Assembly: GCA_000934665.2 (NCBI GenBank)
Contig: KZ538092.1
Span: 124,001-188,000, forward strand
DNA from: Catajapyx aquilonaris
Lineage: Eukaryota
Reading direction: 5' to 3'
DNA: 64,000 bases
The notes below the pieces were generated by a model that did not search any database, was not told the DNA's origin, and was given only the letters and a program-made list of their open reading frames with translations. Below are positions 8,601-64,000 of the stretch, piece after piece. The position numbers and the translations under genes were made by a program. The first letter of the stretch is position 1. Each line of letters starts with the position of its first letter.

Positions 8601-9716
8601 CGACGGTGGAGGCGGGCAACACAGCCACGTTGCTGTGTCGGGTCAGGTCAGAGGTCCCTCCGGATGTTCGGTGGTTGAAGCGACTTTCGACTGGAGAGCT
8701 GCCACTGCAGCCCGCCTCGGGGCCGCCACCCCCTGGACACCCAGGAAACTGGAGCATCGAGTTTGACGGTTTCCACTACCAGGTATGCACTAGTTGACAG
8801 TTTACAGGAGTGGGAATGCACCATTTAGGTCACGCCCCCATTTTTCCCGCCAATTTTAAACTTTATGGAGGATTGACATTTTGGTGCTGAAAAGTGGTGG
8901 AATGGGTGTTTGCATGTATGGTTGAGCTATTCGTGCACAAATATCCCAAACCATGGTGTCATTGTCCAACAGGTGCTGCCAGCCAGCGAAGTGGTTGCCG
9001 TACAGGACGGTGCCTACCTGAACAAGCTCAGCATAATGGAGGCTCGTCCCCAGGACAGCGGCGTGTACCTCTGCCTTGCTGTCAACCCAGTGGGCTACAA
9101 CTTCAGACAAGCTGCACTCAGCGTACAGCGTCCTTTCCCGAAGAACCTGTCCGGAATCTTCCCTTCCTCTCAACCCCATCCGTACCCGGACAGCTCCCGT
9201 CTCCCGGACGTCCTGGTGTATGTCGTGGTGCCGGTATTGCTCTGCTCATTTCTAGCCACAGGAGGGGTGTGCTTCCTCCGCAAACGTAGGAAGGGCAGCA
9301 GCACCAACCCACCACCTGCACCGGCAGCACCGCCTCCGCAGCATCCAACGACGCTACCGACCATCAAGACCAACACACAACACAGCGGTACACAGACGCC
9401 CGAGGTCTTCTTGCCAACCTCCTGGCCTTACTACCACACGCCTCTTCAGCACCATCAGACCAGCAGTCCGGAGTACGCGTACCCTCGACTGCTGTTTCCG
9501 GCCAGGAGCGACCATCCAGACGACATCACGTCTGATGATGACACGGCCAAGTCGTACCACGACGTGATGAGCTACGCCGTACCCGCACCTTCTCCATCCC
9601 CGCCTCCGCCTCCCTCCCCTGCACCGCCACATAACATGTACCTGCATTACCCTCACACTCACCATCCTCACCACTCGTGGAGGCATCATCACCGACACTT
9701 GCATCTTCATTGTTAG
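5674..9716 (+). CDS. FGFRL1: FGFR-like 1 (FGFRL1/nou-darake-like) kinase-less receptor, paralog A, about 589 aa, 6 coding exons
   Basis: Exons 5674-5758 (signal peptide MPIRMLLLPLIFAVLCHFLPGAGSSGIK), 7657-7772, 7831-7987, 8056-8493, 8553-8782 and 8973-9716; all GT-AG and frame-consistent. Ig1 has [10 protein letters not shown]; Ig2 has LKC..DGSPPPEIVWFK...YVCSARNFLG; Ig3 has C.VRSEVPPDVRWLK...YLCLAVNPVGYNFRQAALSV. TM segment LVYVVVPVLLCSFLATGGVCFL is followed by RKRRK. The tail has no kinase, contains YPRL, and ends HTHHPHHSWRHHHRHLHLHC, like the His-rich, Cys-terminated vertebrate FGFRL1 tail. Confidence 0.9.
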
Positions 9717-11430: not shown

Positions 11431-14400
11431 TCAGACGAATATCGGTCCTGCAATGATTGAACAATCAGTTAGTTTATTGCACCTTAAATGTACCGTGTTA
11501 TGCAATAATGAGTCAACCCACCCGAGAACAGTTTTGAGAAAAAGAGCTTTGAATGTCACACAGCATGTGAAATTAATTCAGTGTCCTTTTCGGTCATTAT
11601 TATGACAAGCTTGGTTTTAACTGAATAAAGTAAGATCCTTTGAGCGTAACTCAATTGTGACATTTTGATGGGTTGACACATTATTGCATAACACCGTCCA
11701 AATATACAATAATTTTCCTCCAAATTGAAAGTAATTGTGCTTACTGTTTGTGTCGGGACAGTCGCCAGACCCGACTCCTTGAAGTGAATTCCTGGACTGA
11801 TCTGAAGATGAAACGTGGTGCAGAAGAGGCTGCTGGCACTGTTGCTGCCAACAGTCTCTCCTGGACAGTCCTCTGGCTGGTAGCACCCCTTGGACGCCTC
11901 CTCCGACAGTGGATGGCGGTGCTGGCACCAGATGAGATGAGGCCGAGCTGGGAGGTGGAGGCAGGTGTGGGTAGCTGGCCACGGTGCTTGGGGTGGGTCC
12001 TTTGCCACCCATCGGGTGATGCTGGTGCTGCGCCTGCCCCTGCTGAGGGTGATGTCGACGACGACAGCTTTTGTGACGACGACGCCTCCAGCAGTATATG
12101 CCCAACACCAGGACGACAGCTCCGGCGACACCAGCCGCTGATATTGACACCATTAGGGTCATAGGGATGGACTCTGTAGAACCAGCTGTGAAATAGACAC
12201 AAAAGATCCGTCTTATATAGTTACTTCTAAAATAAACAGGAAGGCATATTCCGTGTATAGGTGCATAAGTAATAGCTGTTTGCAAGGTGATCGATACGAG
12301 ATAGCATCTCCGAAGCGCCTTTAGTCCAAGTACTCGGCACAGACACTGGATTATTAGATATTCATAGGAAAAGGCAGTAGTAATCAAGAGAGTCAACAGA
12401 GCCAGACGCATTAAAATTCATTGGTTACGCCTTGTAATCAGCAGAAATAAAGAATTCCCCCCACCCCCTCCCTTTCCCTTTCCCTTTTTCCTTTCCAACT
12501 CCGGATGCCTTCTTTCGCTATCCGTCTCTCATTCTGCTGTATGTATGCAATTATGCATAATAGATATCACCGAGAGTTTGTTCATTATCGGGATTTGAAC
12601 GCGAGAATGAAACGGGAATCCTATGCTGAATACCTTTCTGCAGCAGAGATGCTCCAAATCTCGAGATGCAAAGACGTCGATATATTACGGGCCGCCATGC
12701 AACGTTAGCTCTCTATTAACGCTACAGGAACCACGGTTCAGCTACATTTACTTTGGCGCAAGGAACACTTTGAAATTGCTCCTAAAATAGAATTACCTGT
12801 TTAACAAAGGAAGCTGCGCTTTTCACAACATGCATCCTTGCACACTGCCAGGAAGGTAAATAGTATATACAGTGTATAAGTCCCTGTACATGAAATTGCC
12901 TATAAAAGTCACATTATATCTGAGAATCTAAATAGTGTTAGGAATCACACTGCATGAACACTCTAAAACAATAAGGATGTAAATCAAACTAACACTGACA
13001 AGTGAGTGTACCTCTTTGTATATTCAACTTCAGTGACACTACCAATTTTTTTTTGTTATGTAATGCTCAGGTGTTGGAAAAATAAGTTTGAGTCAAGAGA
13101 TCCTGGTTTAGTTTCTCTACTCAATGTACAGTACGTTATATTTAAGTTTAATTGTAATGCAATTTTTTGACGATTTATTTATTTATTTATTAGAATACTC
13201 TATTGAGTCCTTGCCATTTTTTTGAGTAAGTTAGGCCTACTTCGCTGACAACAAAATTGACGAGGGTTGTCTACTCACCAGAAGGTTTTCCCAATTTCAA
13301 AAATTCATGCGGAAAAAAAGCTGAGTGGGAAAGATTCAAGAGTGCGGAGACAGCAAGGAAATGCGAGAAAATCCATATAAGGAGTGACAGGAAGTGGGAG
13401 GAGTAATCCTTGGGAATACGGCAAAATCCAAGGAAATCCCAGATTTCGCCATACGATAATCCCAAAGAATTTAGATAAAACCCGCAGAGAATTTCCTTTC
13501 GGTTATGCTCCCCTGCAAGATGAGAAATTCTGACAGTGAGTAATATGGGTACCAGCAACCTGGTTGGAGACCCTGTAAGGTGATCTCGCTTATCTTGTGA
13601 TCTGATACGCCTGAAACTTGGCGTGTTGTCTACTCATATTCGACTCTTGTCAAGAAAAAAAAGGTCCTGTCTTTTGTGGCGTAGCAACCTTTGTTACTTG
13701 ATGCTTACTATTTTTCTTCTAGATCTTATCATGTCTCAGGTCTCATTTTGCCTCCAAATGCAGGACTCACGATACACCCAGTGGGCCTCTCAGACATCTG
13801 GGTCAATTGCCCTTTGAGGTGGCAGCAAGTGGTGTTTATATTATATCCTAAACACTTTGATAAGCGGTCTGCAAACAGTAGCTCGGTTATATTAACTGTC
13901 AATCAAGTGAGAATTCCAATTAATATATGGGAGGAGATTTGATTTTTTCCTATGTAAGAGAGAGCCTTTTCCGACTTGTCCACGTAAATTGTACCGCACT
14001 ATAAAACTAATATTTCTACACAGAATAATTTTCACGTCAATTATTATCCAACTCCTAAACTTTTGTATCTATAGAATACCGGTAGTTTATGGAAAACCAT
14101 AATATGAGTAAAGGGTGTGGAAAAGACATATATAAGTGAAAAATATACGGACATAATTATTACGTGTAAATGGACAATTTTAGGTGAAAAAATACGTAGC
14201 TTTGATTTCGATTTCACAACTAGACTAATTGGCAAAATTTTAAATGCAAATGAACTATTTTACTTTCTTCATACTTATCAGTGTGTTTATTGTCGCTTCA
14301 TAACCTCATAAAAACATACTTTAAGAAAGAGTGTTATTAAGTGTTGGACATGAACTTTCAACTGACCTGGACGAACTTTAAGTTCAGCCTGCGAGTGATC

Positions 14401-17400
14401 ATATCCTTGCTCGTTGGTGGCCAGACACACGTAATCCCCAGAGTCATCGATTGAGACCTTTGAGATTCTGAGCGTCTTTGAGAAGGATCCGTCCGGCAAT
14501 GGCTGAGTGGCCGACGCCCCATGTCTTAGAAGCTGGAAGGCTCGACCGTCGACCAAAAGCATGTCATCTGCCTCGTGGTTGACCTCCGACTGGTGCTGGT
14601 TCTCCACCTTCTTCAACCACTGAATGTGCGGAAGTACCTCGCTGTTCACCTTGCAATCCAGCAACACCGACTCACCCTGTGACGCCTGCCAGCCCCTGTC
14701 CGAGTGCATTCCGACCACCTCCGGACGTTTCTCGGCTCGTTCTGAAACAGAATAATTGATGAGACGACGACGGAACAACTTCAGGCGCTGACAACGTACC
14801 GACAACTTGAACCCGGAAGGAATTCTCGACGTTCCCGAAAGAGTTGGACGCTCTGCATAGGTACGTCCCAGAATCCTCTGGAGACAAATGGGTGAAATGA
14901 AGGACAGCCTTGTCCTGCGGATCCTTCGCATGATGCTGCTCAGGCAGGGCATACCCTTCCTGTAACACAACATGAAATTTTGGCGGAATTCTCAGGTATC
15001 ACCCTATTCATTTTTTTTAATGGGCTTGAAAACCGACCTTGTACCAGAGTAGCTGAGGTTCAGGAACTCCGTCGACATGACACCTGAGGATGAGCGATGC
15101 CCCAACCGGCCTCTTGAAACTGCCCTCTTGATGGGCATCCGTGAAGAAAGGTCTCACGCCTAATGTTCCGGCCGGAAGCCGCCCAGATCTTTCAGTCGCT
15201 GGCGCGTTCGGATCTGGAGCAAAAAAAAACATTTCCCATCACAAAAACTATAGGAGTGAGTCCCCCCCAAAAAAGAGTATTGTTGTACCATAGACGACCA
15301 GTCTGAGTGAGACTTCCTCGGATCCAAATCCATTGACCCCTTTACAGACGTAGATTCCGGAATCTTCTATCTCTGCATCCTTGATCCGGAGCCCTCGGGA
15401 ACTGGCCCGGAAGCGGGGCCAGGCTGTGTTTATGGCCTCTCCGTCCTACGGTACCAGAAAAGGGGAGGTTAATACAATAAATCCGGGCTGCACTATGCAA
15501 TAAACAACACAAACTGCATACCTTGAACCACTCCAATATTGGTCTTGGGTGGCCTTCGATGGGGCAGTCCAGACGAAAGCTTGCACCGATGGGCTGGGAT
15601 ATGGCGAGGTCACCCTGCGAGGTCACCTGGGGTGGTCCTATCAATCAGACAGAAAATATTATATAATTAATAACAAAATTATGTGCCTGATGGGGGTATA
15701 TCTCAACTGATTGGGACATCAGCAGCGGATTTCAGGCATAAAAATAGGGTCTAATTAAGGTCCGCTTGATATAGTCTGGAATTCAATATGGTTTCCCCGG
15801 ATGGGATTATTACTCGGCGTGGCGATAATTAGGCATGCAAATGAAGGGTGTGCGCCACGTGGCAACACCGCGGCCTGCATTCAGATTTATGGCGCTGGAA
15901 TCCTTTTTGGGCGCCGTGGATGAGCGTTGGGGCGCAAAATGGGATCTAATGAGCAAGGCTTAAAGGCTCTTTCAACCACCCACCCACCCACCCTGTGCTG
16001 TCACATTTTTGCAAATCTGCACTAGGAATAATACACCAGCAGGCAACACATTCAGTCACGATCTAAAATGACTTTTATGACACCCTGTATACTGTAACCA
16101 CTTGTTGGTCGATATATTTTGGCGTATGTTTCAAGACAGGTGTCGGTTGTAATAGCCTTTTCAAAATGGGCTATAAAGTAATCAGGAACACAACACTTTT
16201 GAGGGCCGGGCTATTAAAGCAGTGCATACTAAACAAAAAGTTATATGAACTCTTGCGATCTGAATGGCATGTTTTTTATGGGAGCCATTAATACAGCTGG
16301 GAGGGAAAAAACAGTATTTTTCCTTCTTTCAGTTATCGACAAATTGACCCGACACCACTTCTTTGCTCTGGAGGACTAAACTTTTTTTTTCCAGAACTTG
16401 AGTCGTTGTTTGCACTTTGCAGTCTCCTGTGCATTACCCGGGGCTTTTTGCGACCAATATAAAACTCCTGCACCGTAGTTCAACAGTCTGAAATACTACT
16501 CCTCTTTTTGCACTTAAAAGTTTTATCATCTACAGCAGTTAAAAAGTTCCACCTTTTTATATATGCTGGTCGAAATCCAACATTTCACAAACAGACATTT
16601 GGAACTCATGAAAATGGAGCTAAATTATATCTTTAAAGCCCATATATAGACATAACATATCAAATGACCCATCAGAGTGGACCAATCTGAATTCCACTCT
16701 GGCCACAGTCTGACCATCCCTTTTCGAATAGGTGAAATAACTCAGTGATTGAGCAATGCTTGGTTGGTGTAGAGATTTGCATTACTGTAGGCTTTATAGC
16801 CAGTTCGACGACCGAGTGTGTCTCCATGCTGCCTTTTTTATTGTTGTTATCCCCAACACGAGAGTGACCAAGAGGAACGGACCAAAGAGGAAAACCTGAA
16901 AGCTGCAAGGCAGGTGTCAACCTTAAGGGTGAGTGAACTTTTTTAAAAAAATTTCTTCAGTCCATCGCAGGGTCCTAAAACCTTTTAAAATGTGGCCTGA
17001 ACGACAGTGGAATTGAACGCTCCACCTGCTGGGTATAGGTGTGGCGGAATTGCATTTTTGCAGAGCTTCATGCATAAAAGTTGCGCTATCGGGTGAAATC
17101 CTATCATGTATATCCGGACGATCATCGCATGATTTACCTGCCAGAAAATATAATAATAGCGTGTGTGCCTCGTATAACCTGGGGAGTGACAGCACAATAT
17201 CGGTCGAGCCAGTGCCTGGATGTTGACACAGTTATGGGCCACAAAAATCGGATTATTAGAGACAACAAAAGGCAGTTCGAGGCGTGATATTGTCACCGAG
17301 CAGGCGACATTTTAGCCTCACATTGCTCCTTAAAAATCTGGTCCACGCCATAACTTTTTTCCAACCACTCTATATAAGAAAAAAAAAACGAGCTGCTTTG

Positions 17401-24606: not shown

Positions 24607-27600
24607 TGGCCAAACGGGCCCAGCACCTGCAGCAACCCTGTGAAAAAAAAGAGACAGAACTTCCGATAGTAAATGACTCCAACTCGGCGACACTACATAC
24701 ATACGTACACACACAGACATCCACGTGGGTAGAATTCCGAATAGGGGGGTTTAGAATGGGGGTCAACAACCCGGAGTAAAAGAACTTGATGAACTGATTC
24801 ATCCACTCAATCCGGGGCGAGAGATATAGCTAGGAGAAAGACATAGGGCCAGAGACAGAAAAAAAGGGGGTCGGCTTCAGCTTGCTTGCTTGTTAGCCAA
24901 GGTTGAGCGGACTTCCTTTGTCTCATAATCCTCGGTATTGGCGCGCAAAAATGGCGTGTCATCCTCTGCCGCCCTTGTTTCGGAGGGGGACACGTCCGCT
25001 TATTGACTCGCTTCAGAGGGGGCGATGGAACCAGAAAAACAACTAAGCGAGATGTCTTCATTGTTCCAGGGTACACGTGTATAAATTTCTGCCTGTTAAA
25101 ACAAATGTGGATTGCCGGCCATGCTTCCGGGCCATCGTTTTTTTTTAAAGGCGCCCACGTTAGACAACTGGACTTGAGATGCGGCCAGAAAACACAAAAC
25201 AAAAAAAAAATTCACTCTCACTTTGTGGCACTAATTAAGACTTTTTGTGAGCTGTCAGAAACACTATTCTCTGTAGAATTAATGTTTATTGCGACTCAAC
25301 GTGTCACAAAGAATCATATAATGGGTTTGATGCAGACCGCAAAATATGCAGCATCACTGAAGCCTTGCTCATGAAAAGCGAGAGGCTTTTAAATTGTGTA
25401 ATAATTAATCATTTTGAAGTTAAATTAATGATTGATCTCGAAATTATTTTGGAATTTCTTTTCCACCTTTTTCCCGTTTGAAATATAGAGCTCGATAATT
25501 TTTTGAGCCAAATTTCACATTCAATTGCTTTACTATTGCGAATCCTAGAATAATTTATTAGTGCAATAGACTACATTTTAACATGAATTTTATTAATATC
25601 GGCGGCGAATAAATTAGCTTAAAACTGGTTCAGACTGTTCGGTAAAAAACCATATTCATCACTCAAAAACAGTAAAAGGTACGTAAATTTCTCAGGACAC
25701 GGTTGAAATAATTTGTACAAAAAATCATATAGAATGCCAGTTTACGAGTTTGACCTATTTTAAATTAAAATGCGTTTGGGCGTTCCATTTACATGTTAAC
25801 GATATAACTAGCCATATTGATTGTAATTTTTTCGTTTCAATAATTAATACTGTACACGCACTGCTATGATGGATAAAGGTCCGCACCATTAGAGTGAAGG
25901 CTTATTATGCATACTGTCAGTAAAGTACAGGCAAATTTTCTCACCTCACGATCCAGCCAGCTTCGCAACTACGTGCTAAACGAGCCGGTTACAACCCCGG
26001 GTTTTAAAATTACTCCAAATTTTTGCCCCCCTCGCATTAATCAGCCTCTCTAAAGTTCAGATCCGTATCCAAAGTTAGCTCCCGGAATTAACCTAACCGC
26101 ATATACCTTGGAAGACTGAAAGTTGTTGCCTCACTCAAGCCGCATCAGATCGTGCGAAATTCACACAAGAAAAGGCAACAGCGTGACGAAACCATACGTG
26201 ACGGTCAGACTTGAATTCACTTTAATATGTACGCCCATTTTTGGGAGGGGGGAGGGGGGGTGGAAAAAAATGAGGTGACGAATCTCGCTTGTCCTGTGCC
26301 CGAATATGAGGGATGTCCATGGAGACTTCGAAGTGTGCTGAATCCCAAAGGAGCAAAACCCTTAGCAGTGTGGACGCGTTTTGTGGGGGAGGGAAGTGCT
26401 GAGGGGATATCGAATTCCAATTTCTCCCTGTGGGCGACTATCCTGGCAGCCCAGCAGCAGGGAAAGGAAAAGGGGGGAGAGAGAGAGAGATAGCCCCTTC
26501 TTCCCTCTCCTCCCATCCCTTCCCCATTTTATTCCTTCCACTTGGCGAGTTCCTCCCCTTCTCCGTTTTGAAACTCATCATGACTCGAACTTTCCGCCCC
26601 CGCCTTCATAAATATATGCGGCCATTTGGGGGGAGGGGGGCTTTCGGGGGGGATGCTGACAGTGCTGATGATAATGGTCATGGTGGCGCCCATTCCGGGG
26701 AGGAATATGCACGCTGTGCCACACGTGCTGTTGGGTATGGACCCGATTTCCTGGAAGGCTTGACCGTATGTGGAGACATAAGCGGTTTGGAATTAAAACA
26801 GGGCTAACGGTGCTATACGCGTCAAAATTGGCTGTTTGCACACCTGCATTGTCTGAGTTACGATGCACACTGTATTTTTCATGGGGGCTGCGTATAGGCT
26901 CGGATGGACCAATTTGACACACAGTGCGTTGGAGCTGCAGCAGCACAGTAATAGGCTTATTCTCTCCGTCTGATATTTGTCCGACCTGATAGTATCGCTC
27001 TCTCTCAGGCCCTGAAGGTGGCAGCAGTGGGCAAAGTGAGTACGCCATCTGTGCGTGAAAAATAATAATACGTGGTAAATCGGCGGGTTACAGTTGTTTA
27101 ATTGCTGTCAGTGTCATACTGATTACAGGTTTTGCCCATTTTTGGCAACTACTAGCTTACTAATAATATGCAATGTTGCTGAATATATTGTTTGTATGAT
27201 TACCTCTCCAACCTTACATATCTTAAGCGGAATTTTAAGTCCTAGAGGAGCAGGCCGTTGGCACGTTTTTGGGTCCCCTTAGGAAATGGGTGGGTAAATA
27301 TCTGGCGAGCAACAGCGCTTTGGGGCCGATTAGCATACGCCCTGGCTGAAATTCATCCCTGGAAACAAGGAAGAGGAGGTTTTGGGAGTCAAAAGGGCGT
27401 TCCCTTTAATTGACAGTTGGAAAAGGGGGACTGTGGAGTGACTGTACCTTCCCCTCTCTCTACGTACAATTGGCAATGCTAATTGTGATTTCCTCCCTAA
27501 TTGCAAATTACAGGAGAGGGGGGGGAAGGTCGCAAGTGTTTGGCCAACTTGATTTCGCTGGAGATAATGAAACGGATGGGGAGGATGGTCGGGGGGGTTC

Positions 27601-30600
27601 GGATTATTGGATGAGAAAATGTGCCCCCCCCCCTCCCATCTCCCCATCCACACCCCTCAACACCGCACATTTTCAACCCGGAATTGCTCCAGGCCCTCTG
27701 GAATATTCGGGGTCATTTCATGCAATCCAAAGCTCCGGCTATATTACCTCCAACCTCACGCCCAAGCCCTCAATTGCACCGCATCTATTGAAGATTATTC
27801 GCACGCTCTTTCCCTTCAAAAAATTTTTTAAAACAAGTTGAAGAAGCCACTTGTAAGATGAGACACAATTGATAGTAATTATAGGTGTGGTTTGAATACA
27901 TCTCGAGGCGATGACCTCGCCAAACTTTGGCAACATGGCTGCCTTTTGCAGGACAAGAGAAAGAGAGGAAGGAGGAGGAGGAGGAGAAAAAAATGGGTAG
28001 AAAAAGGTGTCGGGTGTGCCATTAATTTCGATTAAATCCCATGGTAACCTGGCAGGAGTAGAGTACACCTCGGGACAAAATGCTCTCTCTTCACGCCTCG
28101 AAAAAGAGACTGGTTTTTGTTGCTGGTGGGGACAAGTTTTCTCAGTGCTTGCCTCACACCTTTCATGCATATACATGTGCCAGGCCAGTATATACTAGAA
28201 GTAGTTTTGCTTGGATAATTTCCAGTAGGGAGTATGCGAGAGGTAGGTCGGTGCCATAATTTGCCAGGGCCCTGTCATGTTACTTGGGTTGCTCGATACG
28301 TGCAATACATTTGCCATGACTTTCACGCCCGGTTGACATGACTGGCACAATCGTTCATTATCTCCAATTACATCTTTCTGACGTGATGTGACATAGATGG
28401 TGTCTGGTGGAGCATAACAAGCTGGGCAAGTTTCATTTATTATTTTCCGCAATCCACGCACCACATCTATAACTACACACATTTCAATGACTTGTAAAAA
28501 ACTCGTAAATCATATTTTGAGGTTACAAGCCACAAAAGCTATAGAGAACGTGGGACGGCCACACGTACCTCTCAATGCATCCTACTTTCCGACGCTTTTA
28601 TACGCTTTAAAAGTGGGGCTTAACACAATAGTGTAGCGGAAACTGGTACAGTAATCTAGTTATTCTTTCATACTCCAAAGCACTTCGCGCCCAAAAAGAA
28701 TTGCATTATGGGGATAGCCAGCGCAAAATTTTGTTTACGACAAAAAACCCGCATTACATTATGACACTGCAGAGGACGGAAGCTCGCTTTGAAGAAACGG
28801 AAATGAAAAAGCTCCCCTGACTGTGTACAAAGGACAAACGCACTGTACATGACACCCATACATATAATAATCACATTTTCTTTGTGACAGAAGTATTCAG
28901 TAATGAAACAACTACTAGTATACTGTACAGTACATGGCAATGTAGTGGGATGAGGGTTAAGTGTACTGTCAATCACATTTCAATCCTGGTGACACCAATG
29001 CAGTGACACCCCGGTTGCATATCTGCCAGGACATGTTTACAACCAAACCGGGATAGAAAGCATCACCTTTTATGCAGTTAGCAAGGATATAGGTGCAAAG
29101 TCCTGGCATTTTAAAAAAGAAGGGCATGATGCCTCTCATCCAGCAGGATCCCAGTGTTGTTGACGGGAGGCCTCCTCATTAAGTCGTCGCCCAAAATTTA
29201 TGGCCCGGGTCTCTCCTTTTTTTTAACATATACACATATCGGAGCTGGGTGTCGGGCACGGCAAGAAAATAATAAATAAACAGGCGGCGGTGAGGATCGG
29301 GTTTCCGGCTCGTTTGCTTCAGGTGGCAGCTCCATGCTTCACTTTCTTATATATACGACGACCCAGAGCAAAAAAAAGAAAAGCAGGATTATTTCGTTCC
29401 TCCCAGGCTGAAATATACTGTGTAAAAGCTGCGGTCATCTGACCGTGACCCCCTGCTGGGCCTGATCCTTCTCCAGGCTAAATTTTTTTTTAAAGTTCTT
29501 CACAGAGCCAACTTCCCTTCAGAGTAAGATTAGGCCGAGTTTTACGAGCGTGGGGAAGGGCGTGGGCGAAAAAAGAGGACTTTTTCTTCATATACTTTAG
29601 ATGGTGCAGGCTCTTCTATGGTTTCCCCCCCCCCCTTCCGATAAGGCGTTTATCAATAGAATTTTATTACGCTAGTCGGGGGCGCCTACCTTCACCTTTT
29701 TGTTTTTCTGGCAAATATTGAGGCCCCCACCGCCATACAATGGAGGTTAATATGAAGACAAATGGCGTTTTCCACGCGCTTTCATGGAAAATATGAACAT
29801 AATGGCCGAAGGGTTTGGTCCTCCGGTTGTTTTCCAGGTCGTTCCTCCTTCCTTGTTTTATATATATTTTTAAAACGTATTTACTGCAGCTTTTTGGAAG
29901 CCTTTTTTCGGGTCGCGGTTCGCCTCGAGCCGTTGAGAGGATTTTCCATCCGCTATAAACTTTCATTTTCCAAGCCACTTAGACCGTTTTATCCTGGCAG
30001 CCTTTCCATGAGCTGGTTTATGCGGTTTTGGACTTTTTTTTTGGGAATTAGGACTTTCATATTGGGAAAACAGCAGCAAACCAGAAGTGGTCAGTTTACA
30101 ATCCATCTTTGGCTTATGATAATATTTATACACAAATCCTGACGCGGTGTACAAACTAGGGAATAATTTAATGAGTGCAGATATGAACAAGGCAGGCCGG
30201 CTAATTTTGGGAATGTTTTTTTTTTTCAACAGGTGAGACTAATTAAGTCTGACAGCTCCAATTCCCTACTACACAGGTTTCGTCTTGGCCCCTGCGCCGA
30301 AACGTGTTTATTTACACGGGCCAAAATTCCATTTTGTGCTATCGGAAAGCTAAAAGGAGGAAAAAGGTCTGACTTGAGATATGTTGTTGTGAGGAGCCAA
30401 AATGGCGTTTTAAAAAAACCTAGAGGGGGGTGCGTTAGAAGCCCTCCGAATTTTAAAAAAAATAAAATACAACCAGTTGAAAATTCTTGAACTACACATC
30501 CAAGCTTAACCCCCTCCGGAATTCAAATCTGGCTTGCAAACCTGTTCCGCTTGCGGAGAAGTTCAATCACGTGGGAATGCACCGCGAAATATTTGGCGAG

Positions 30601-39363: not shown

Positions 39364-42300
39364 TTAACACATGAGGTCAGTGTGGTATTGTCCCTGGTCT
39401 CTAGGTCTAGCCCAAGGAGGCAAAAGCGGTTCTGGTCCTCCTTGATGCGGATGATGGTAGTGGTGGTGATGATGACCCACTGATGACCTCCCGTGACTTG
39501 ACCCGCTGCTGGCCCTCGGGAGGTGTGTCGCCGAGCAATGCGGGTCGTTTCTGGCCAGGAGAAGAGGCGCTTTCTGGTGGTGGTTGGGGTCATGGCCGGC
39601 TCCTCCTGGTGACCAAGCCATCTGGATCTCCCTCGACGGTCCTTCAACCACAGGTACAGGAGACGTCGGGGCTGCAGAGGCGGTCATCTTGTTCCGGTTC
39701 ATCTGCCATCGGACTGCAGCCAGGATGAAGACGCCTAGCACCAAGATGACCGCCGGGAGGGCCACCAATGGTATCAGGGAGAAGGTGTCTCCTGGATTGC
39801 GTCCCACCGTGTCTGAAAGATGAAACAACATCGAGTCATTTTTGAGCAACATTTTAAATTCCAAATACGTGAGTAAATACTTTTCAAGCCAGCTTCAGCG
39901 ATTTCTACGGAGGGTCTAACAGTCACACGTCCATAAATTGAAAAGCTCTCATAAGGTCAACTTTCAAAAGTGATTCTCACTCAAATTGAGTCAAATACAA
40001 TTATAAATATTTTACATTGTGTAGCATTGATTTACCCTTCAGGTCGCGCAATCCAACAAAATCTTGGAATGATTAAAGGCATTGCAGCGCCTGATTGCCT
40101 ATAATGTTATACATAAGTAAAAAAGTCCTTCACTTTTACATATGCCCCAGAGCTTGTTTGCTTCACTGCAACTACGTTGATGTGCCCGAATATTCTCCAA
40201 ATGCTCAGTTCCTGGAGGGTATCACTGCACAGCCTCTTTTGTGATCTGGGAGTTGAAAGCTCTATAGAGGATATGCCTGTGTGGCTGCAGAATATACCCT
40301 CCAGCGCTGATGTAATTTGGACCCTCTCAATACTGGGCCACGTCGCTATAGAATTTGATCCAGAGATTTCTGTATACTGTATAAGGCTGGCTATTCACAG
40401 ACATGTAAATGGATACGTACATGGGATTACAGTGAGGTAGGCTTCCCTGAAGCTGTATCCTTGGTTGTTGGCTCCGACACATATGTACTTTCCAGACTGT
40501 GCCGGAGTAGCTCTGGGGATGATGAGTCTGTGCAAGAACAGACCGTCGCTGGTTTGGTGAATATTCTCGGCCCCTCTTCGCAGGACCCTGAATCGGACAC
40601 CTCCGATGTCCAACGTGCTCTGGTTCGAGGATGAAGTGACACTTCCTTCTTCCACCTATACGAGGAAATCAAGAAGATGTTAATACCTTCCTCTTGACAA
40701 GCTTATAAATTCTTCTTTCGTAACATCATTATTTTCTATATACTGCTGGGCACATATTTGTAACAAAATGCAGAGCAGCAATTCCTATAGCAAGATCCCT
40801 CAGGATTGGTTTACTTGTGCCCAGAAGAAGATCCAATGCGACTTCTCAAGCAAGAAGTCCTTCGATTTTTATGCTATGAAAGGAGGGCTCAATATGTGGA
40901 AATTCATGGAGAACCCAGGGGAAATCCTGAGGCGACTTGAAAATCGAGTGAATGTAAAATGAAGCTGACCTGCTTCAGCCAGTCGATATGGGGGTGACTG
41001 GCGCTTCTCACTGTGCATTGAAGAGACGCCGTCTGTCCCTCGTGAACCGTAGTGTTGACAGGATGAACGCCTTCCAATTGCGGCTTTCTCCCTGTAGTAA
41101 CTATAAAAGAAAGCAACAACTCTAAAGTATACAGGTCATCCGTCACAATGTGCAGTACATACCAACAGCTTCTACGCTGATGTCAAAGTTGGCCTCGCCC
41201 ACAATATTCCAAGCTCTGCAGGTGTAAACCCCAGCATCCCTGGGACTCAGGTTCCTCATGAGCAATACTGTTCCGTCTCGTACATTGTTGCTCACTTGGG
41301 AAGCATCCACCGGTTGGCCGTCCTGCGGGGACGAATAATTTAGTAACAAACTTTCCATGGAAAGTTTGTGCTGTTGTAATAATATATACCTTGAGCCATG
41401 TGGTCTGCGGGCGAGGGTTTCCCACAGCCTGGCACAGAAGATTGAACGATGACCCTAGAGGCCTCTGCACAAAAGGTGACTGGCTAAGGGTCGCTCTGGT
41501 CAGGCTCGGGATGGCAGTCCGACCTTCTTTAGCCTCTTCGTCATCGCCTTGTCCATCGTCGTTGACCACTGACCAACTGGGTCGATGCAATCGGTGTGAC
41601 GATTGGTCCTGTGGCTCCTGGCTATCCGACGACGATCCTGAAATTAATCAGAAAAAATGTTCATATTAAGAAGAGATTAGAATCCGCTTACTTGCATAAA
41701 TTTATTCAATTATCCGGAGTCCAAATGAGATGCGACAATCATGTGCAAATACGATAATCCATAATGCTGATAAATATATTGACTTCATACTAAAGCGGAT
41801 GCCATATTTTTTAATGCTTCAGGCGATAATTATTGATGGGTCGTGGGTCGAATTAGCAGCTACTTAACAGTATTTAACACTCTTACGAATTATCACAGGT
41901 GAAAAAATGTGGCAACCGTGCAAGTGTCCGATGGTAAAGGTGGGGGGGATAAAAAAAATTTGTTGCTCACGTTCAAACTGAAAACAAAGACTGGTGATGT
42001 TGGTGATAAGACTGGAAGGCGTTGGGTCGCTGAGGTGAGGGGGACGGAGTTGATGGGGAGGGTTTGGAGAATAGGTTTCTTTGCTCAGTTGAGGGTTTAA
42101 TGTATCATTGTGATGGCGCCCTGATAGTTGGTTGGCCCACTGCGTCGGAAGTAGTTGCTCACGCTCCAATGACTGCCACATTGCTATAGCTTCATCAGGT
42201 CCGAATTTTTTATCAGGTTATTTTTTTCCCCCCAGCTCTAGCTCCACCACTCCGGAGCGCGAGAAAAATTGCTTGAAGCAATCATTAAAAAGAAATAATC

Positions 42301-45300
42301 CCAAACACGCCGGCAGTTAATATAAATTATTGCATTGTGCCGCCTGAGATAATGGATAACACTTTTTCATTATTTTCACAGCCCCTCCCTGGGTATCAGA
42401 TATAATTGTCGAATTCCATGCAGCAACTGCATTCATTGCCCGGATTTCATTCCCATGGTTATTGTCTCTTGGCCGTGGAAGCTATAATTTTGAACATCAT
42501 CAGCGGATAAAAAATTAAGAATGATTGTGGCCATGTCCGCATATAAAAGAGTACGTTTATATTACGCCAAACAAATTTAGGCTGATATAATCTATACAAC
42601 ATTTTCGGTCAAATTTTCAGCCTGATAGGAGGATATTACGTTCACTATTTTTATTCTAATGATCAGCCACTTTCTGCTAATATTTCAACGACAATGTAAG
42701 TGAAGTCACACAACGTTTTGGCCGGAATGTCTATCAACATTTTTTACATTCTATAATATTTTCAGCTTACAAAAAAGGTTGCGAAGCATTTTTTTTCTCT
42801 TAAATCTTGTTAAAACATATTGCCCACTGTCAGAAGAATTACGACTTAAATATTTTCGTGTAGCTCGTGGGCGCAGTGCCCTTGACACATCCTCAATTAA
42901 CCCAATTTTTCACGTGTGTGGACATCGTAGTCGTTAGTTCTCAGGACCTCCCGAGACAGAGGGGTGACGTTAAAAAAATAATTGGTCGGGCATGGGAAAT
43001 GTCCTGAGAGATAAGAGCCCGGGTTTTGGAGGGGAAAAAATATTGGTGGGGCAGCTGTGTCCTTTCAGAGAGAGAAAAGGCCACAAATCTGTCGTTGAGG
43101 TAGTGGAGAATGGCGGCTTGGGTCCTGAGGTGTGAGGGGAGGTAGGGCAGAAAATATATATCTGGTAAAGGGCGTTTGGGTTGGGCGCGCCTCGTCGCCT
43201 GCCAGCTCAACCGTGGGGCTCTCGGGTGACAGACATACCCGACCCCACAGAGGATTTGGTTTCCAGGCCATGCCAGGAAGAAAAAAAAAGCCTTATACAA
43301 CACTGAACCCACAAAAAAAATCATACCCAACACTAGAAGACGGATTGAAGCCTCTTCCCAGCCGAATCCGTTGACTCCTTTGCACATGTACAGGCCAGAG
43401 TCCTCATGGGTCGATTCCTTCAGGCGAAGTGATCGGCCGTTCAGCTTCAGACGATCCCATATTTTTGTCACTGATTCTCCATCCTGTTTTGGGGGAATAA
43501 TGGTTTCGGTTATTGGGTTGTCAGCAGATTATTTTGGCTATAGAGAAGGATGATTGATTTGGGACCTTCGGAGACCCTCGCACGCGGCATGTGTCATGGT
43601 GACTCATTTGAACACGAGCATTACTCACCATCATTAGAAGACACATGTAATCAAAAACGACACGACAGTTGACTTACTCTACAAGTTTCCAATATTTGCA
43701 GAAATGTGGCGAATGAGCCTGCAGAATGAACTCATTTTTCAGCACGATTTCATAAGGTTCTGTAATAAATCAGCAGTAACGCGAGGTGAACGCCCTACTC
43801 TCCTCAGCCAGTGTTTATATATCCTGGGAGCATATGCAACTCGAGTGTTTACCCCCCAAGTATTCGGCCTGCTAGGGGGCCCACTCAAAACGCACTACTT
43901 TTCGGCGGTTCGTCCCCTATTGTAACTGGTTTGATCTACAGCTCGCAGTTGTCACGCTGAGGCTTATTCAACCGCGATAATTATCCCATCATATCGCCCT
44001 GACAAAGGTATGCTTATACAGCAGATTAAAGCGGGGGGACCGATTTCCAAAGTTGGGTGTGTGTGGGGGGCGGTCCATTGTCCAAGAATTATATCTCCGA
44101 TAAGCAGCTTTTGGGCAGGGCCACTCTATAACCCCCACGAGGGTCATTACCATACATTACCTTTGTCCAGTGCACCATTGGGGGTGGATTGGCATCGACG
44201 GGACACACCAGTTTGACATCGTCTCCTTCTCTGACCGTCTGTTGCTGTGCAGAAGGACCCAACAATCGGGGTGGACCTGTAGACCAAAATATTATTTTTC
44301 TTGGCAATTTCATGGGGCAGACCTTTTGACAAACACCAAAATTACGATTTCTTCGCTTCAGGCTTTTGGGGTGGATTTTTGGAGGGGGGGGGAGTATAGC
44401 TAGGGGGGGAAGAGAACCCGCAAGCTTTCTGCCTGAGTAAACACTCTTGAAAGGCTGCGGTGGAAATAGCCGGGCCGAGTCAACACGCAGCCCATCAAAA
44501 CGCAACTGCACGCCAAACAGCTTCTGCTTCGCCTAAACAGCCTCCCAGGAGTGTTTATTATGCGGGAGGAAAGCGAGGATGGATGTGTGTGTATAGGTGC
44601 TGCAGAGGACTAAGTGGTGTAGAGACCATATGTGTTAAAAAAAAGCACCAAAAATTTTCGCTCGTTTCCGGGATTTCTAATGTGGATAGAAAACATTTTC
44701 TTCGTGCAATGGTACGGCCTGATGCCAAACCCGTTTTTTTTTATTTGCATGGCACACCTTGGCGGCCATGGCACCGAAATTTCAGCATTCAATGGCCTTT
44801 TTTTTCGGAGAGGGAAAGCATGCATGAAATTCAGAATATTTTCACTACACGGTTTTATGGTGTGCCATCTTGTTAATCACATGTGGAGGACATTGCAGAT
44901 TTGGTAATGCGACCTCAAATTCGCAACCACTTTCAGGTCACCACAAATCTGTGCCGAATCGTCCTTCGCATATGCCCACCTAATGCTCAAACCCACATCT
45001 GATTATATCACTATTTTTATAGAACGTCTGAGGTTAGGAAATTCAGTGCGTTTTTTTTCTGGTGCGTGTGTCCCTTTCAGAGGGGCTTGCCACACCGGGT
45101 ACCAAAAATAGCCTTGGCTCTCTCGACAAGTCGACAAGCTCCATTACTCCTAACCTCCCCTACCCTTGTCACTTATTCCCTACCCACACCCACCACAAAA
45201 AAAACAACAACCGAATAAAACAAAAAAAATATATGTCTTTAAAAAAAAAAATCCCTCCCGTGAAGCAGTGTTTGCTTAGAGATCTGGAATGACGGCATGC

Positions 45301-53169: not shown

Positions 53170-53575
53170 TATGTTTATTGGGTTTTGACCACTTCACTAA
53201 CAGAAAAAATTTATCCAAAAAATGCTTAATTTTCAGCCCAAGTGCTGAAAATTAGGCCTTTTTTTGGGATAATTTTGGATAGTGTGGGGAGGAAGAAATT
53301 TTGGCAAGGTTTCCAAAATTTCTTCCTCCCCACACTATTGCGAAATATGGCTGAAACTTAATATGTAGTGTTATGGCATAGGTGTGTACAGCTGTGATTT
53401 TTCTCAGCAAAATCCGAGATGGTCTAGCAACATTTAGGCCCACCAGATTCAGAAAGATCGTTACGTTTTGAGGATTTGGTTTTGTGACTGCCCCAAGGTC
53501 AAAAACAAATTTCAGACAAAATGAGTTACTAGCAGCCTAAGGAACACGAAAATAGCAATGAATTCCCATGGACAA
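53170..53575 (-). repeat. Right arm of the diverged inverted repeat pair
   Basis: Reverse-complement similarity to 51455-51812, e.g. TATGTTTATTGGGTTTTGACCACTTC, GTGTACAGCTGTGATTTT and AGGTCAAAAACAAATTTCAGACAAAA. Confidence 0.82.
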
Positions 53576-54582: not shown

Positions 54583-56804
54583 CTACGATCCACCACCATC
54601 ACTCTCTTCTGCGTCACTCTCACTCCCTGCTCCTCTCAAAAGCTCGACTTTTCTTGCGGCTTTTCCTAAGGGTGTTAAATTCACAGCAGTTGATTCATCT
54701 CTCACGTCGTAACTGTGAAATGGGAGGGTCTCCAACCACGAGAACATCCTGCACACTGTTAAGGATCATCATGTACAAAGTGATTATGAAAATATGGAGA
54801 CATTTCATAAATATATATGATCTTTCCTGCTATATTTTACACAATATATTGGTATGAACCATCCTAGCCTCACTGATCATATAAATAGTGCAGACAAAGG
54901 CTCAAACACCAAAGCAATTCCAGGTTTATTTGATTATTTAATTGCTGGTGAGTCACAAGGTGCTCATACGCACTAAATGTTAAAGAATGTTTGAACTGGC
55001 TATGAAAATATGGTAAACCAATCAGAAATAGAGTTCACAGTGACAATATCCGACAATTGTTAAAAATATCGACATTTGCTCTTCCACAGACCCCCATTTC
55101 AGCATGGCAAAAATATAGCAGGAAAATACATTATTATGATTTGGAATTATTGTTGAAGTTTGGAAGAATTGCAACATTGTGTCCTTCTAATGATAATACT
55201 TACCCTAAATTTTTCGTTTTTTTTTTTTTACTACTGGCATTAACAGCAACTGATAATAACTACTGCACCCTGCTTATTTTCAGGAACAGTATGACCACAT
55301 CATCAAAAAAAGGATACGATTTCTCCTCCTTTTCCGCCTGAACAATGGCAGACAGAATGTACTTGTCTACAAATTCCTTCACTTTTTCTTCCTCTGATGT
55401 CCAGGTAAGTGGTGCATGAAGTCCATCAGCACCAAATCTCATGTTGTATTTGTCATAATGCACTTGCTCCAAGACAAGTCCCAGGCCTGGAGCGATGGGG
55501 ATGTCCACACGGTCTTCCCCCCAGGCTCTGTCCACAACATCCTCAGAAGCCATTCCCCTTGCAATTGCCACAGCGACTCCAACCATCTTCCTGATCTGGT
55601 GAAGCATGAAGCTCTGGCCCTTGACCACTAACCTGACCAGTTCAAGCCCATCCCTTTCAAATGGCTGCCCGCATTCCATGCTCATAATGTATCTCTGCGC
55701 ACTGGGATCCAAGTGCTTGCGCTTGGCTGTGAAATTGTGAAAGTTATGAGTGCCCACAAACTTGGATAGGGTGGTGTTCAGGGAAGCGATGACCTCTGAG
55801 GTCACACGGTACGAGGCTGTGGTGAGTTCAGTGACAGGCGCAAGGGCAAAGGTCGGTAGGGTGTACGAATAGGTTCGAGCACAACAGAAAGTCTTGCTGT
55901 TGAAGCGTTTGGTCACCTGGCAGGTACCCTGCACACGTATGAATTCAGGAAGATGCTCATTAATGCGATCAACTAGGTCCTCTGCCACAGCTGCAAAAAA
56001 TGTTACAAATTAGTACCATGTCGAGAATTACATGTTAGATTACACAGTAGAAGCCGTTAACGTCCTTTTAATACACCAAAAATATATGGAAATCAGCTAA
56101 AGGATTAATTTTTTAGAATTATGGTTCATGTGATGCAGATGATAATCTTACGAAGTTTCAGGTTGACAATCTGTCTTGCTGCGGACACTCCCTTGTCTGT
56201 ACGTGCAGCTCTCTGGAACTGTATGACCTGCGGCGTCTCAAATGCTTCCTCCGATATGAGATTCGCTTTCTTCAGCGCCACTAGGAGGTCTTCTTCAATC
56301 GTTTTCATGCCAGGGTTTCTAAGGAAGAGTCAGTCATCAGGACAGACTCATATGAGTATACATTTCAGATATTAATAAAATGTTAAAAACTTTAGAATAC
56401 ATTTTTTACATTACAAATACCTCAAGTACAGGTCCATTACAATGCATCTTGTGCTCATACAACCAGTCACCTCACCTCTGCATTCCTAAGTATCCTTTTC
56501 CCAAGTAGGACATGAGGAGCACATATTTCTTTAGCTTAACCCTCTCCTTTTTCTCCTGCGAATCGTCCCCATCCAGCGCGGCTCTTTTAGCGTTATCCTC
56601 CTCGGTCCTATCCTCCCACGGCCGCTTTATGCCATGGGGCGGCTGCTCCTCTGTGGCTGGCGTACTGGCCACGGCCACGTCGCTCATCCTCGCAGTCTGG
56701 AGAAGGACCAGTTGGGTGAACCTGAGCTGAAGAACTCTCGGAGAAGACAACAACCGGCTGCTCCAACTCAGGCTAGCTGCAATTACAGTGCCCAAGTTGA
56801 TCAT
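54583..56804 (-). CDS. PUS1: tRNA pseudouridine synthase 1 (TruA family), about 444 aa, 4 exons
   Basis: Exons 56804-56476, 56318-56152, 55990-55318 and 54748-54583. Motifs: YLGKGYLGMQRNPG, catalytic FQRAARTDKGVSA, ARTYSYTLPTFA, GTHNFHNFT, VKGQSFMLHQIRKMVG, IPIAPGLGLVL, and the C-terminal SMFSWLETLPFHSY. Confidence 0.95.
54749..55317 (-). other. U12-type (minor spliceosome) GT-AG intron, last intron of PUS1
   Basis: The 5' splice site is GTATCCTTT at 55317, and the branch sequence TCCTTAAC (54765-54758) is followed by AGTGTGCAG with no polypyrimidine tract. Splicing joins EKEEKS to MFSWLETLP in frame. Confidence 0.9.
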
Positions 56805-57424
56805 ATTTAGGCAACCATGTACTAACTCATACTTTACATGCATACATGTCAACGAAGCACATGTACGCTCGCTGTGCGGCAATACATTTCTAAAGGTTGT
56901 GTACTAGCTAGATAAATATCATCTCCAGTTTCCAGTAATTGTAAGGGCAATTGTAACGCCTCGTACATGCTACTTGCGCAGTACTTACTGAATTTCGAGG
57001 AAAAAATTAAACCAATAATCTCACCAAGTAATGACCGGACAGCCATGCCATTGGAGGGCCGGATATAGCCTAGCTGCTGCCAAACACAACAGCAGCTACA
57101 CTCCCATAAAAGTAGCTATATTAGCTACATATATTTGAATCAGTTCTGTGAGTTTTCGAACTATTCGTCAATATTTTGCAAAAGTGAAAGAACACGCAAT
57201 TATTGCTCCGTACAATTTTTTCTGTTTAGATTGCGGCGTGTATGACTTGTGATGTCGATGTACAGATGATTCATTATAACATCATTATGATTGTAATTTA
57301 TCAGCGGAGTCCCATGAAGTTTGCCAAATTATCGTTCAAGGAAACGGACACTGAACCCAAAAATTAACATTGCGATGTTCGGGGTGAACGTAGACCTCGC
57401 ACTTTTGTATTTGCAAGAAATGGC

Positions 57425-57523
57425 AAAAGGAAGGTCAAGGTCACTGATGGGAGGGTTTCAAACATGAATCAGTAGCGACGAACTTAAGGGTCATAGACAA
57501 GTACCATCAGTATCGGACCTCCC
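57425..57523 (-). ncRNA. Y RNA-like small RNA, copy 1 (99 nt)
   Basis: Minus strand reads GGGAGGTCCGATACTGATGG-loop-CCCTCCCATCAGTGACCTTGACCTTCCTTTT. It forms an 8-bp terminal stem GGGAGGUC/GACCUUCC, a bulged C9, GA/UU pairs, an internal loop, an 8-bp upper stem ACUGAUGG/CCAUCAGU and a U4 end. This matches the GGUCCGA...UUGAC Ro60-binding signature of Y RNAs. Confidence 0.78.
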
Positions 57524-58153
57524 TACCTGGCTACTCTCTCCTAGGGATATTCATGCCAAGTCCGAAGGAAAAGGCCATGTCCGTCAATTACTCATAATCA
57601 ATATGGGAGAAATTGACCGCAAATGGTTGCAGCCACTACTTACAATCCATACAGAGGAATTGTATGTGCCAACACTTTTCCATATGTCCGAATATGCTTT
57701 ACTGGATGACTGTTGAGACAAACGACGTTTTAGTGATCTGGCCAATGGGAGCGCGCTATTCTCCCCCCCCCCNNNNNNNCCCCCCCCCCGATTAAAATGT
57801 CCAGGCGGGCTTTGTGAAGTCGGGCAATTCACTCTCGTGTACTGCAATAGCCTTGCAAATTGCAATACAACCTTCAACGTGGCATGTAACTAAATATGGC
57901 AATGAGAGTAATAACGTCAGAAAGGCAATAACCGAAAGTTAATTTGAATGGTTATTACTGATATTAATTATTCCTCCACCTTATGCTCTTTTGTCGTTCC
58001 CCATCCTGTTACGTATTCATTTAAATAGGCATTAAATAATTGTTTTAATGGTCTTTCTGTTGTCCTGCAGGTGTGCGGCCTTCAAGGCCGTAAAAATCCG
58101 GAGGCAATGCGGTGGCGGCTGGCGTAGTTTTGTGCAACAAAAAAGGGGGGCAT

Positions 58154-58251
58154 AAAAGGGAAGTCAAGGTCACTGATCGGGAAGTATCAATCATGGTTCA
58201 GAACTGCTAGCTTCAGCGTATTAGTGAATTACCATCAGCATCGGACCTCCC
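58154..58251 (-). ncRNA. Y RNA-like small RNA, copy 2 (98 nt)
   Basis: Minus strand reads GGGAGGTCCGATGCTGATGG-loop-CTTCCCGATCAGTGACCTTGACTTCCCTTTT. The fold is the same as copy 1, with pairing-preserving changes in the stems, a diverged loop, a U4 end and a second T6 run at 58139-58144. Confidence 0.78.
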
Positions 58252-58726
58252 CGGCGGCTGAACCATATCAAAGGCCACCATCTTCAGACCCTGGACTAAA
58301 CAGTGCGGCTTGCAATAAATAAACAAGTCGCCACACAGATTTATCGGGCGTGTAACAACGCATATGCTCGTTACTACCTGATATCATGACGTACTCTACA
58401 CATTTTGCATATAATGTACCTGCAATTTTATATATAAAAAAAGATAAGTGGCAAAATCAATACTGCAGTCCGCGCATGTCCGCATCGTAATGAGTACCGT
58501 CCTTGCCCGCGCGAAATCGAAAGGTCAAGCCATCACTGTCAACACCTAGATATACTGCAGCAGATGACGCGACAACACCTGTGTGTACTTACATGCATTA
58601 TCGCACTTACAGTTTAGTACGGATCATGTACGGATTTACTCAAAGATAAAAAGCGATAAGGAGCAACAACCTCAACAAATGAATTATGCTGACACATGTT
58701 GGCTCTTCCGAACGGTATTGTAAGTC

Positions 58727-58993
58727 TTGTCGCAATTGCTAATTGTCGCAATGGCTTAATTGTCGCAATGAGTAAATCGACATTACGCCTGATTGGCCAC
58801 CTCCCCCCTTCCCCCTAAAATCGAACAGTCCCACACTCAGTACGCATGCGTCGTATCAGCTAGCAGCATGCTGATTGGTTGTATCTCCCATGACCCCGAG
58901 TGGTGATTGGTCCAATGGGGTCAGCTGGTTTGCTGTTGTGACTGGAAGGTGTGAACGGCCTCTGACTGGAACTGAGCGAGTGAGTGATGCAAG

Positions 58994-58999
<6 letters not shown>
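58727..58999 (+). promoter_or_regulatory. Probable tankyrase housekeeping-type promoter
   Basis: Three TTGTCGCAAT copies (58727, 58743, 58760), several CCAAT/ATTGG boxes (about 58791, 58873, 58905, 58912), an NRF1-like ACGCATGCGT (about 58842) and a YY1-like AAGATGGC overlapping the ATG. Motif-only evidence. Confidence 0.5.

Positions 59000-64000
<5,001 letters not shown>

Follow-up and report, generated by a model that had tools for sequence, protein, structure and literature searches.

A probable pair of Y RNA genes between PUS1 and tankyrase in an arthropod close to insects

Results

Two short, similar units lie on the minus strand between the starts of two protein-coding genes, PUS1 and tankyrase, in the window (the whole 64-kb stretch of DNA analyzed here). 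Unit 1, a Y RNA-like gene, occupies 57425..57523 (read 57523->57425; 99 nt including the terminal UUUU), and unit 2, a second Y RNA-like gene, occupies 58154..58251 (read 58251->58154; 98 nt including the terminal UUUU). An earlier note on this DNA had described two same-strand units of 98-99 nt; their positions and lengths were confirmed, both on the minus strand. A repeat finder reported the units as two direct-repeat pairs, one of 48 nt at 79% and one of 41 nt at 80%, with spacings of 729 and 728 bp. An assembly gap (7 N within a long C-run at 57773-57779) separates unit 1 from unit 2, and the spacing of 729 bp is therefore uncertain.

The neighboring coding exons provide the context of the units and are not part of the RNA genes. 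The first coding exon of PUS1 (56475..56687, minus strand) has its ATG at 56687. From the Met at this position, the frame 56472-56903 (minus) aligns to residues 1-59 of cockroach PUS1 (E 4e-9), the alignment taking in frame residues 73-143, and the Pfam domain PseudoU_synth_1 matches the next exon of the gene. The first coding exon of tankyrase (58994..59239, plus strand) has its ATG at 58994, and the frame 58988-59248 (plus), read from this Met, aligns with spider tankyrase-1 from residue 1 (E 2e-20). Most of the tankyrase-named proteins listed share 73-83% identity with another tankyrase exon, at 61603-62178, and one row shares 65%. The location between the PUS1 and tankyrase starts proposed in the earlier note is thus borne out by flanking ATGs at 56687 (minus) and 58994 (plus). 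Because these exon starts flank the units, we place both units in a divergent intergenic region of 2.3 kb, oriented like PUS1. Short tandem repeats were seen upstream of the first tankyrase exon, at 58727-58770 (17 nt x 2.6) and 58391-58437 (23 nt x 2); at the units themselves, tandem-repeat and composition profiles showed nothing special.

The same two genes were used to place the host. No protein found shares more than 59% identity with the PUS1 exon, whose best named matches are from polyneopteran insects. In a PUS1 tree of 33 rows (32 of them picked from 120 listed), the window falls on a long branch in a weakly supported arthropod group. The tankyrase-exon tree has 34 rows (33 picked from 120) and places the window as sister to the whole insect side of 10 rows (9 from named insects, the other an unnamed Logan row), in a clade with an SH-aLRT value of 98. 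From these gene trees the host reads as an arthropod close to insects, and no finer placement is made.

Immunoglobulin-domain exons (Pfam Ig_3 and I-set) occur elsewhere in the window, at 7657-9716 (plus), 14287-14991 (minus) and 39364-44532 (minus). Two of the Ig frames, 8877-9716 and 39364-39894, end in histidine-rich tails. Recurrence of the motif CKGVNGFGW in the Ig exons suggests paralogous receptor-like genes. For the 279-aa Ig-domain frame at 8877-9716, no relative was found among proteins of 490-2000 residues.

Units 1 and 2 are most alike at their ends, with identity of 21/23 at the 5' end, 24/28 at the 3' end and 30/48 in the middle. The 5' motif GGTCCGATRCTGATGGTA has 2 occurrences in the 64 kb, compared with 0.08 expected from shuffles, and the 3' motif ATCAGTGACCTTGACYTYCCTTTT also has 2 in the 64-kb window, compared with 0.00 expected. 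Stems are kept better than the loop (45/51 vs 30/48 identical positions, Fisher p = 0.004), the differences amounting to 6 of the 51 stem positions and 18 of the 48 loop positions. It had been stated earlier that most of the loop diverges; in fact, it is 62% identical. Both units do carry CAUG.UUGA.AC in the loop, with a pyrimidine run after it, as described. Since a neutral dead copy would spread its changes evenly, we reason that both copies have been under constraint for most of their history. The flanks were said to be unrelated, and local alignment agrees: scores were equalled or exceeded in 117 of 300 shuffles for the 150 nt upstream of the units and in 136 of 300 for the 80 nt downstream.

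Both units can adopt a common predicted fold, which consists of a lower stem of 8 bp, a bulged C9, the pairs G10.U and A11-U, a 3-nt bulge on the 3' side, an upper stem of 9 bp, a loop of ~52 nt and the terminal UUUU. All 38 of the 38 cells of this fold hold standard pairs, compared with 34-55% when the partner was slid by 1-3 columns. The architecture proposed earlier (8-bp stem, bulged C9, GA/UU pairs, asymmetric internal loop and upper stem) can thus be formed by both units. In unit 1, the 5' arm of the lower stem (RNA positions 1-11; 57513..57523, minus) carries the bulged C9 and G10 A11, and the 3' arm (RNA positions 86-95; 57429..57438, minus) consists of UUGAC plus 5 nt, with positions 1-8 paired with 88-95 and positions 10-11 with 87-86. 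The upper stem of unit 1 (9 bp in the minimum-energy and consensus folds) has its 5' arm at RNA positions 12-20 (57504..57512, minus) and its 3' arm at RNA positions 73-82 (57442..57451, minus), and its core is formed by A17 U18 G19 pairing with C75 A76 U77. The predicted energy is -26.7 kcal/mol for unit 1 (z -3.21, 0 of 200 shuffles as good) and -24.6 kcal/mol for unit 2 (z -1.72, 10 of 200 shuffles as good). The plus strands of units 1 and 2 fold worse than the minus strands, with z of -2.22 and -0.86, respectively.

The pairing-keeping differences between copies reported in the earlier note are real (G3.U/G3-C, G5-C/G5.U and A13-U/G13.U), but all of them are one-sided wobble changes. A fourth difference lies in the stem region: the best fold of unit 1 pairs G19 with C75, whereas unit 2 has G at column 75, and this pair is lost unless the register moves by one. 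In unit 2 the A-U and U-A pairs of the upper-stem core are kept, and G19 pairs after a shift of one column. Two-sided (compensatory) changes were found at 0 of the 19 pairs in this comparison of only two paralogues, and for this reason the structure rests on energy and the model. Covariation therefore proves nothing in this pair: behind the earlier claim of selection on structure stand three wobble changes and no compensatory change, and what the copies do show is the better conservation of stems than of the loop.

Family assignment was assessed with the Rfam Y_RNA model (RF00019), which is built mostly from vertebrate sequences. This model matched unit 1 with 34.2 bits (E 6.8e-5) and unit 2 with 29.1 bits (E 0.0014), in both cases over model positions 1-96 of 96 on the minus strand. 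The Y RNA identity that had been proposed for the units thus gained a full-length match at each of them, although both scores are under the curated gathering cut-off of 38 bits, a threshold that belongs to this single model and does not describe a property of the RNAs themselves. A standard Rfam scan of the window at the gathering threshold gave 0 matches, which implies that routine annotation passes over loci of this kind. A permissive scan of 57300-58400 (1.1 kb, 4227 models, E up to 10) gave 6 matches, the best two being Y_RNA at the exact unit ends and the other four having E of 2.5 to 8.4; no Rfam family besides Y_RNA among the 4227 models matched the units at E up to 10. Rescaled per family to an assumed 1-Gb genome, E becomes ~0.015 for unit 1 and ~0.3 for unit 2 by our arithmetic. 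When the whole window was scanned permissively, the units were not listed, and 12 unrelated hairpin matches of 23-32 bits were returned; scan filters tighten with more sequence, and a score of ~30 bits is weak when taken alone. Several unrelated microRNA models gave weak hairpin matches at 26454-26533 and 53268-53350, where both strands were hit, and at 27569-27653, where the minus strand alone was hit. These three hairpins score far below the cut-offs and are probably inverted repeats.

In the letters that matter most for the family, both units carry GGUCCGA and CUUGAC identical to the Rfam consensus, with GGUC-C-GA opposite UU-GAC. A structure descriptor (GGTCCGA, 50-105 nt, TTGAC, the remaining 5 lower-stem pairs and then TTTT) matched at 2 sites in the window, compared with 0 sites across 300 simulated windows. 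A covariance model made from both units listed 35 matches at E up to 10, namely the 2 units (by construction) and 33 noise-level matches, and nothing else in the 64-kb window scored above 14.5 bits. Four DNA-pattern scans for relatives, two of metagenome contigs and one each of prokaryote-genome and viral contigs, gave 0 hits each; these collections hold little animal DNA, and the result is uninformative on conservation. An ordinary local duplication that happens to fold could also produce model scores under the threshold, in a window with a hairpin background of 23-32 bits. We nevertheless consider such a chance resemblance very improbable, given the excess of descriptor sites over simulated windows and the fact that two full-length model matches coincide with the repeat ends.

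RNA evidence was taken from one public run (X1), which is labelled as an invertebrate metatranscriptome and shares 0.09 of the sampled words. Contigs of this run were placed on 57000-58700, and six fell there. Five of them (6 aligned pieces) are confined to 57427-57522 and together cover it; each piece has 0-2 other letters, and word depth ranges from 5.8 to 353. Elsewhere between 57000 and 58139, and beyond 58253, the bins have depth 0. RNA matching unit 1 is present in this run, in contigs that come from one study and carry no information on strand, ends, level or size. The label of the run means that this RNA may come from a related species. Confinement of the RNA cover to unit 1 is a further point against chance resemblance. 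Near unit 2, there is one contig (58168-58234, depth 6); since it differs from unit 2 at 6 of 67 letters, expression of unit 2 is not established.

As we read their sequences, two contigs of the run have a 3' part of unit-1 RNA joined head-to-tail to a Y-like variant, which sets in at position 1 or 2 of the predicted RNA; one of the two also skips 57486-57497. The variants agree with unit 1 at 21/26 and 25/30 letters; in the second variant, A10 G11 replaces G10 A11 and could still pair with UU. Joints of this kind would be expected from template switching at a true RNA 5' end, and would then fit the predicted start, but they could also represent concatemers, circular forms or an assembly artefact. 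Several loose contig ends in the run resemble what we take to be a transposase-library adapter.

Each unit ends in a T4 run. In unit 1 this run (57425..57428, minus), a candidate Pol III terminator and La-binding oligo-U, is the sole T run of at least 4 in the unit; in unit 2 (58154..58157, minus) a T6 run follows 9 nt further downstream, and neither unit body has T4 before its terminal one. Promoter signs were less regular. A candidate TATA-like word, GAATATCC, was found at 57545..57552 (minus), i.e., at -29 to -22 of unit 1, with no counterpart of unit 2 at that distance. The word TGGCCTTT occurs at -54 in unit 1 vs -26 in unit 2, and no upstream word common to both units at a fixed distance was found. 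Insect Pol III promoters of the snRNA type have a fixed PSEA-TATA spacing and a fast-evolving PSEA sequence (PMC1761439). From the two upstream regions by themselves, no type-3 Pol III promoter could be recognized.

An 8-nt direct repeat, CAGCCGCC, is located around unit 2 at -9..-2 and +33..+40 (58253-58260 and 58114-58121, minus), the second copy lying 32 nt beyond the unit 2 T-run. The probability of such a repeat by chance is ~0.03 by our arithmetic, and it may be either a target-site duplication or a chance occurrence. Because it brackets unit 2, this unit is possibly a promoterless DNA-level copy. One could then propose that only unit 1 works, and that unit 2, a copy of the RNA body plus ~30 nt downstream, is silent or decaying. 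Besides the bracketing repeat, several observations fit such a history: the lower model score of unit 2 and its weaker fold, the G at column 75 that forces a register shift in the upper stem, the absence of a TATA-like word near -29 and the divergence and low depth of the sole RNA contig nearby. However, the concentration of differences in the loop rather than in the stems is unlike a long-dead copy, and unit 2 keeps all 19 shared pairs intact as well as its T4 terminator. We treat a silent unit 2 as possible, while doubting it.

The sharp end of likeness at the unit boundaries, with unrelated flanks that include the promoter region, also raises the question of a mobile family, in which the units would be Y RNA-derived or Y RNA-like repeats (a SINE or pseudogenes) whose transcripts have no Ro60-linked role. 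Mammals have ~1000 Y RNA retro-pseudogenes according to one review (PMC5745555), and the further variants and chimeric contigs in the RNA run could be accommodated in the same way. Signs of mobility were few, however. Only 2 copies of unit-type sequence occur in the 64-kb window, no A-rich or poly-A tail was found downstream of the units (the longest downstream A run is 4), no direct repeat was found flanking unit 1, and ARAGORN detected no tRNA-like part in 56000-60000. In addition, the stems are selectively kept, and tandem copies 729 bp apart resemble the known clusters of Y RNAs and sbRNAs (PMC5745555). As judged from this window, a mobile family is an unlikely source of the two units.

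Discussion

Y RNAs are characterized by a helix with a bulged C9, which is the binding site of Ro60, and by a 3' oligo-U, which is the binding site of La, as described in reviews (PMC4030889 and PMC4726728). Vertebrate Y RNAs (human Y1, Y3, Y4 and Y5) share many features with the two units, including a length of ~100 nt, paired ends and the GGUCCGA / CUUGAC helix with bulged C9. They also have in common an internal bulge and upper stem, a variable loop whose 3' side is rich in pyrimidines, and UUUU at the end. Differences were also evident: the upper-stem core is GUG/CAC in vertebrates vs AUG/CAU in the units, UUAUC at the start of the loop is missing in the units, and no type-3 promoter was recognized at them. 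In the Rfam Y_RNA model the upper stem has 2+6 bp, compared with a continuous 9 bp and one 3-nt bulge in the units. To our knowledge, the vertebrate Y RNA cluster is not adjacent to PUS1 or TNKS. Clustering of genes on the same strand is a further likeness to vertebrates (PMC4726728 and PMC4030889).

Nematode stem-bulge RNAs have an upper stem of 9 bp with an A/GUG-CAC/U core and UUAUC at the 5' end of the loop, and the UUAUC motif has been linked to a role in replication (PMC4450293). The units resemble these RNAs and the CeY RNAs in the single bulged C, the 9-bp upper stem, the A/GUG-CAC/U core and the poly-U end (PMC4450293), as well as in tandem arrangement (PMC5745555). In contrast, the conserved UUAUC (TTATC) is absent from both units. 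The letters of the lower stem are nearer the vertebrate consensus, and the likeness to the nematode RNAs is one of described features.

Insect relatives are of special interest, as they represent the lineage nearest to the host. Y RNA-like or stem-bulge RNAs are cited for Anopheles gambiae (a candidate) and Bombyx mori (an sbRNA) in a review (PMC4726728), and the title of a Drosophila melanogaster sbRNA study appears in the reference list of PMC7281143. These insect RNAs are of the same kind as the units by citation, not by sequence. Bacterial Y RNAs (Deinococcus, Salmonella and Mycobacterium) likewise combine a bulged-C Ro60-binding helix with Ro60 orthologues (PMC4030889); here, however, the host is eukaryotic and no tRNA-like part was found in the units. 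Moreover, bacterial Y RNAs are called not homologous to the vertebrate clades in another review (PMC4726728).

The resemblance to nematodes raises the alternative that the units encode a different stem-loop RNA, such as a replication RNA of the stem-bulge type or a lineage-specific Pol III RNA, which would have its stem by descent or convergence and would not act via Ro60. The 9-bp upper stem with its AUG/CAU core, as in nematode stem-bulge RNAs (PMC4450293), and scores under the Y_RNA cut-off point in this direction; in addition, the replication role in nematodes is assigned to the upper stem and loop motif and not to the Ro60-binding lower stem (PMC4450293 and PMC4726728). Yet the best-kept letters of the units belong to the lower stem with its bulged C, where they agree exactly with the vertebrate consensus and make up what is named as the Ro60 site (PMC4030889), and it is the replication-linked UUAUC loop motif that both units lack. 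We therefore regard a different type of RNA as improbable.

Taken together, the data favor two paralogous genes of the Y RNA / stem-bulge RNA family in an arthropod close to insects, a reading to which we assign a probability of about 0.7. Unit 1 is the well-supported gene, with a solid case; for unit 2 the case is fair, and it is probably a second, weaker or diverging copy. The proposed link to Ro60 derives from identity of the binding helix and is, to that extent, an argument from sequence. If these are Y RNA genes, RNA polymerase III would start at the first G and stop in the T4 run, yielding an RNA of 95-99 nt with paired ends. The lower stem (8 bp, bulged C9, G.U and A-U) would then serve as a docking site for Ro60 and the 3' oligo-U as a site for La. 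Candidate sites for further partners would be the upper stem, with AUG/CAU at its core, and the 3' side of the loop, which is rich in pyrimidines.

A more specific proposal is that a Ro60 helix of the vertebrate type and an upper stem of the nematode type (AUG/CAU) are combined in a resident Y RNA cluster of a hexapod-related arthropod. We offer this combination tentatively, and at present would not expect it to hold.

Conclusions

In this study, we describe two Y RNA-like units that point to a Y RNA locus in a part of the arthropod tree where such RNAs are weakly annotated. Mapping of Y RNAs is good in vertebrates and nematodes and poor in arthropods, for which a mosquito candidate and a silkworm RNA are cited in the reviews consulted. 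The earlier note had placed the locus in a sparsely described lineage. Annotation is indeed weak there, but the lineage adjoins insects, for which Y RNA-like RNAs have already been cited, and the novelty is accordingly smaller than that note assumed. In a limited, word-based search of the open-access literature, we found no description of Y RNAs from crustaceans or from hexapods other than insects.

The units leave knowledge of how Y RNAs work unchanged. A confirmed pair with RNA evidence would provide a seed for a better arthropod model, and studies of Ro60 in the host lineage would gain a concrete RNA partner. If the combination of vertebrate-type helix and nematode-type upper stem were true, it would imply that one ancestral bilaterian RNA carried both Ro60 and replication modules. 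In that case, the head-to-tail RNA joints would be worth a look as circular or concatenated forms, and both roles could be tested in arthropods other than the model insects.
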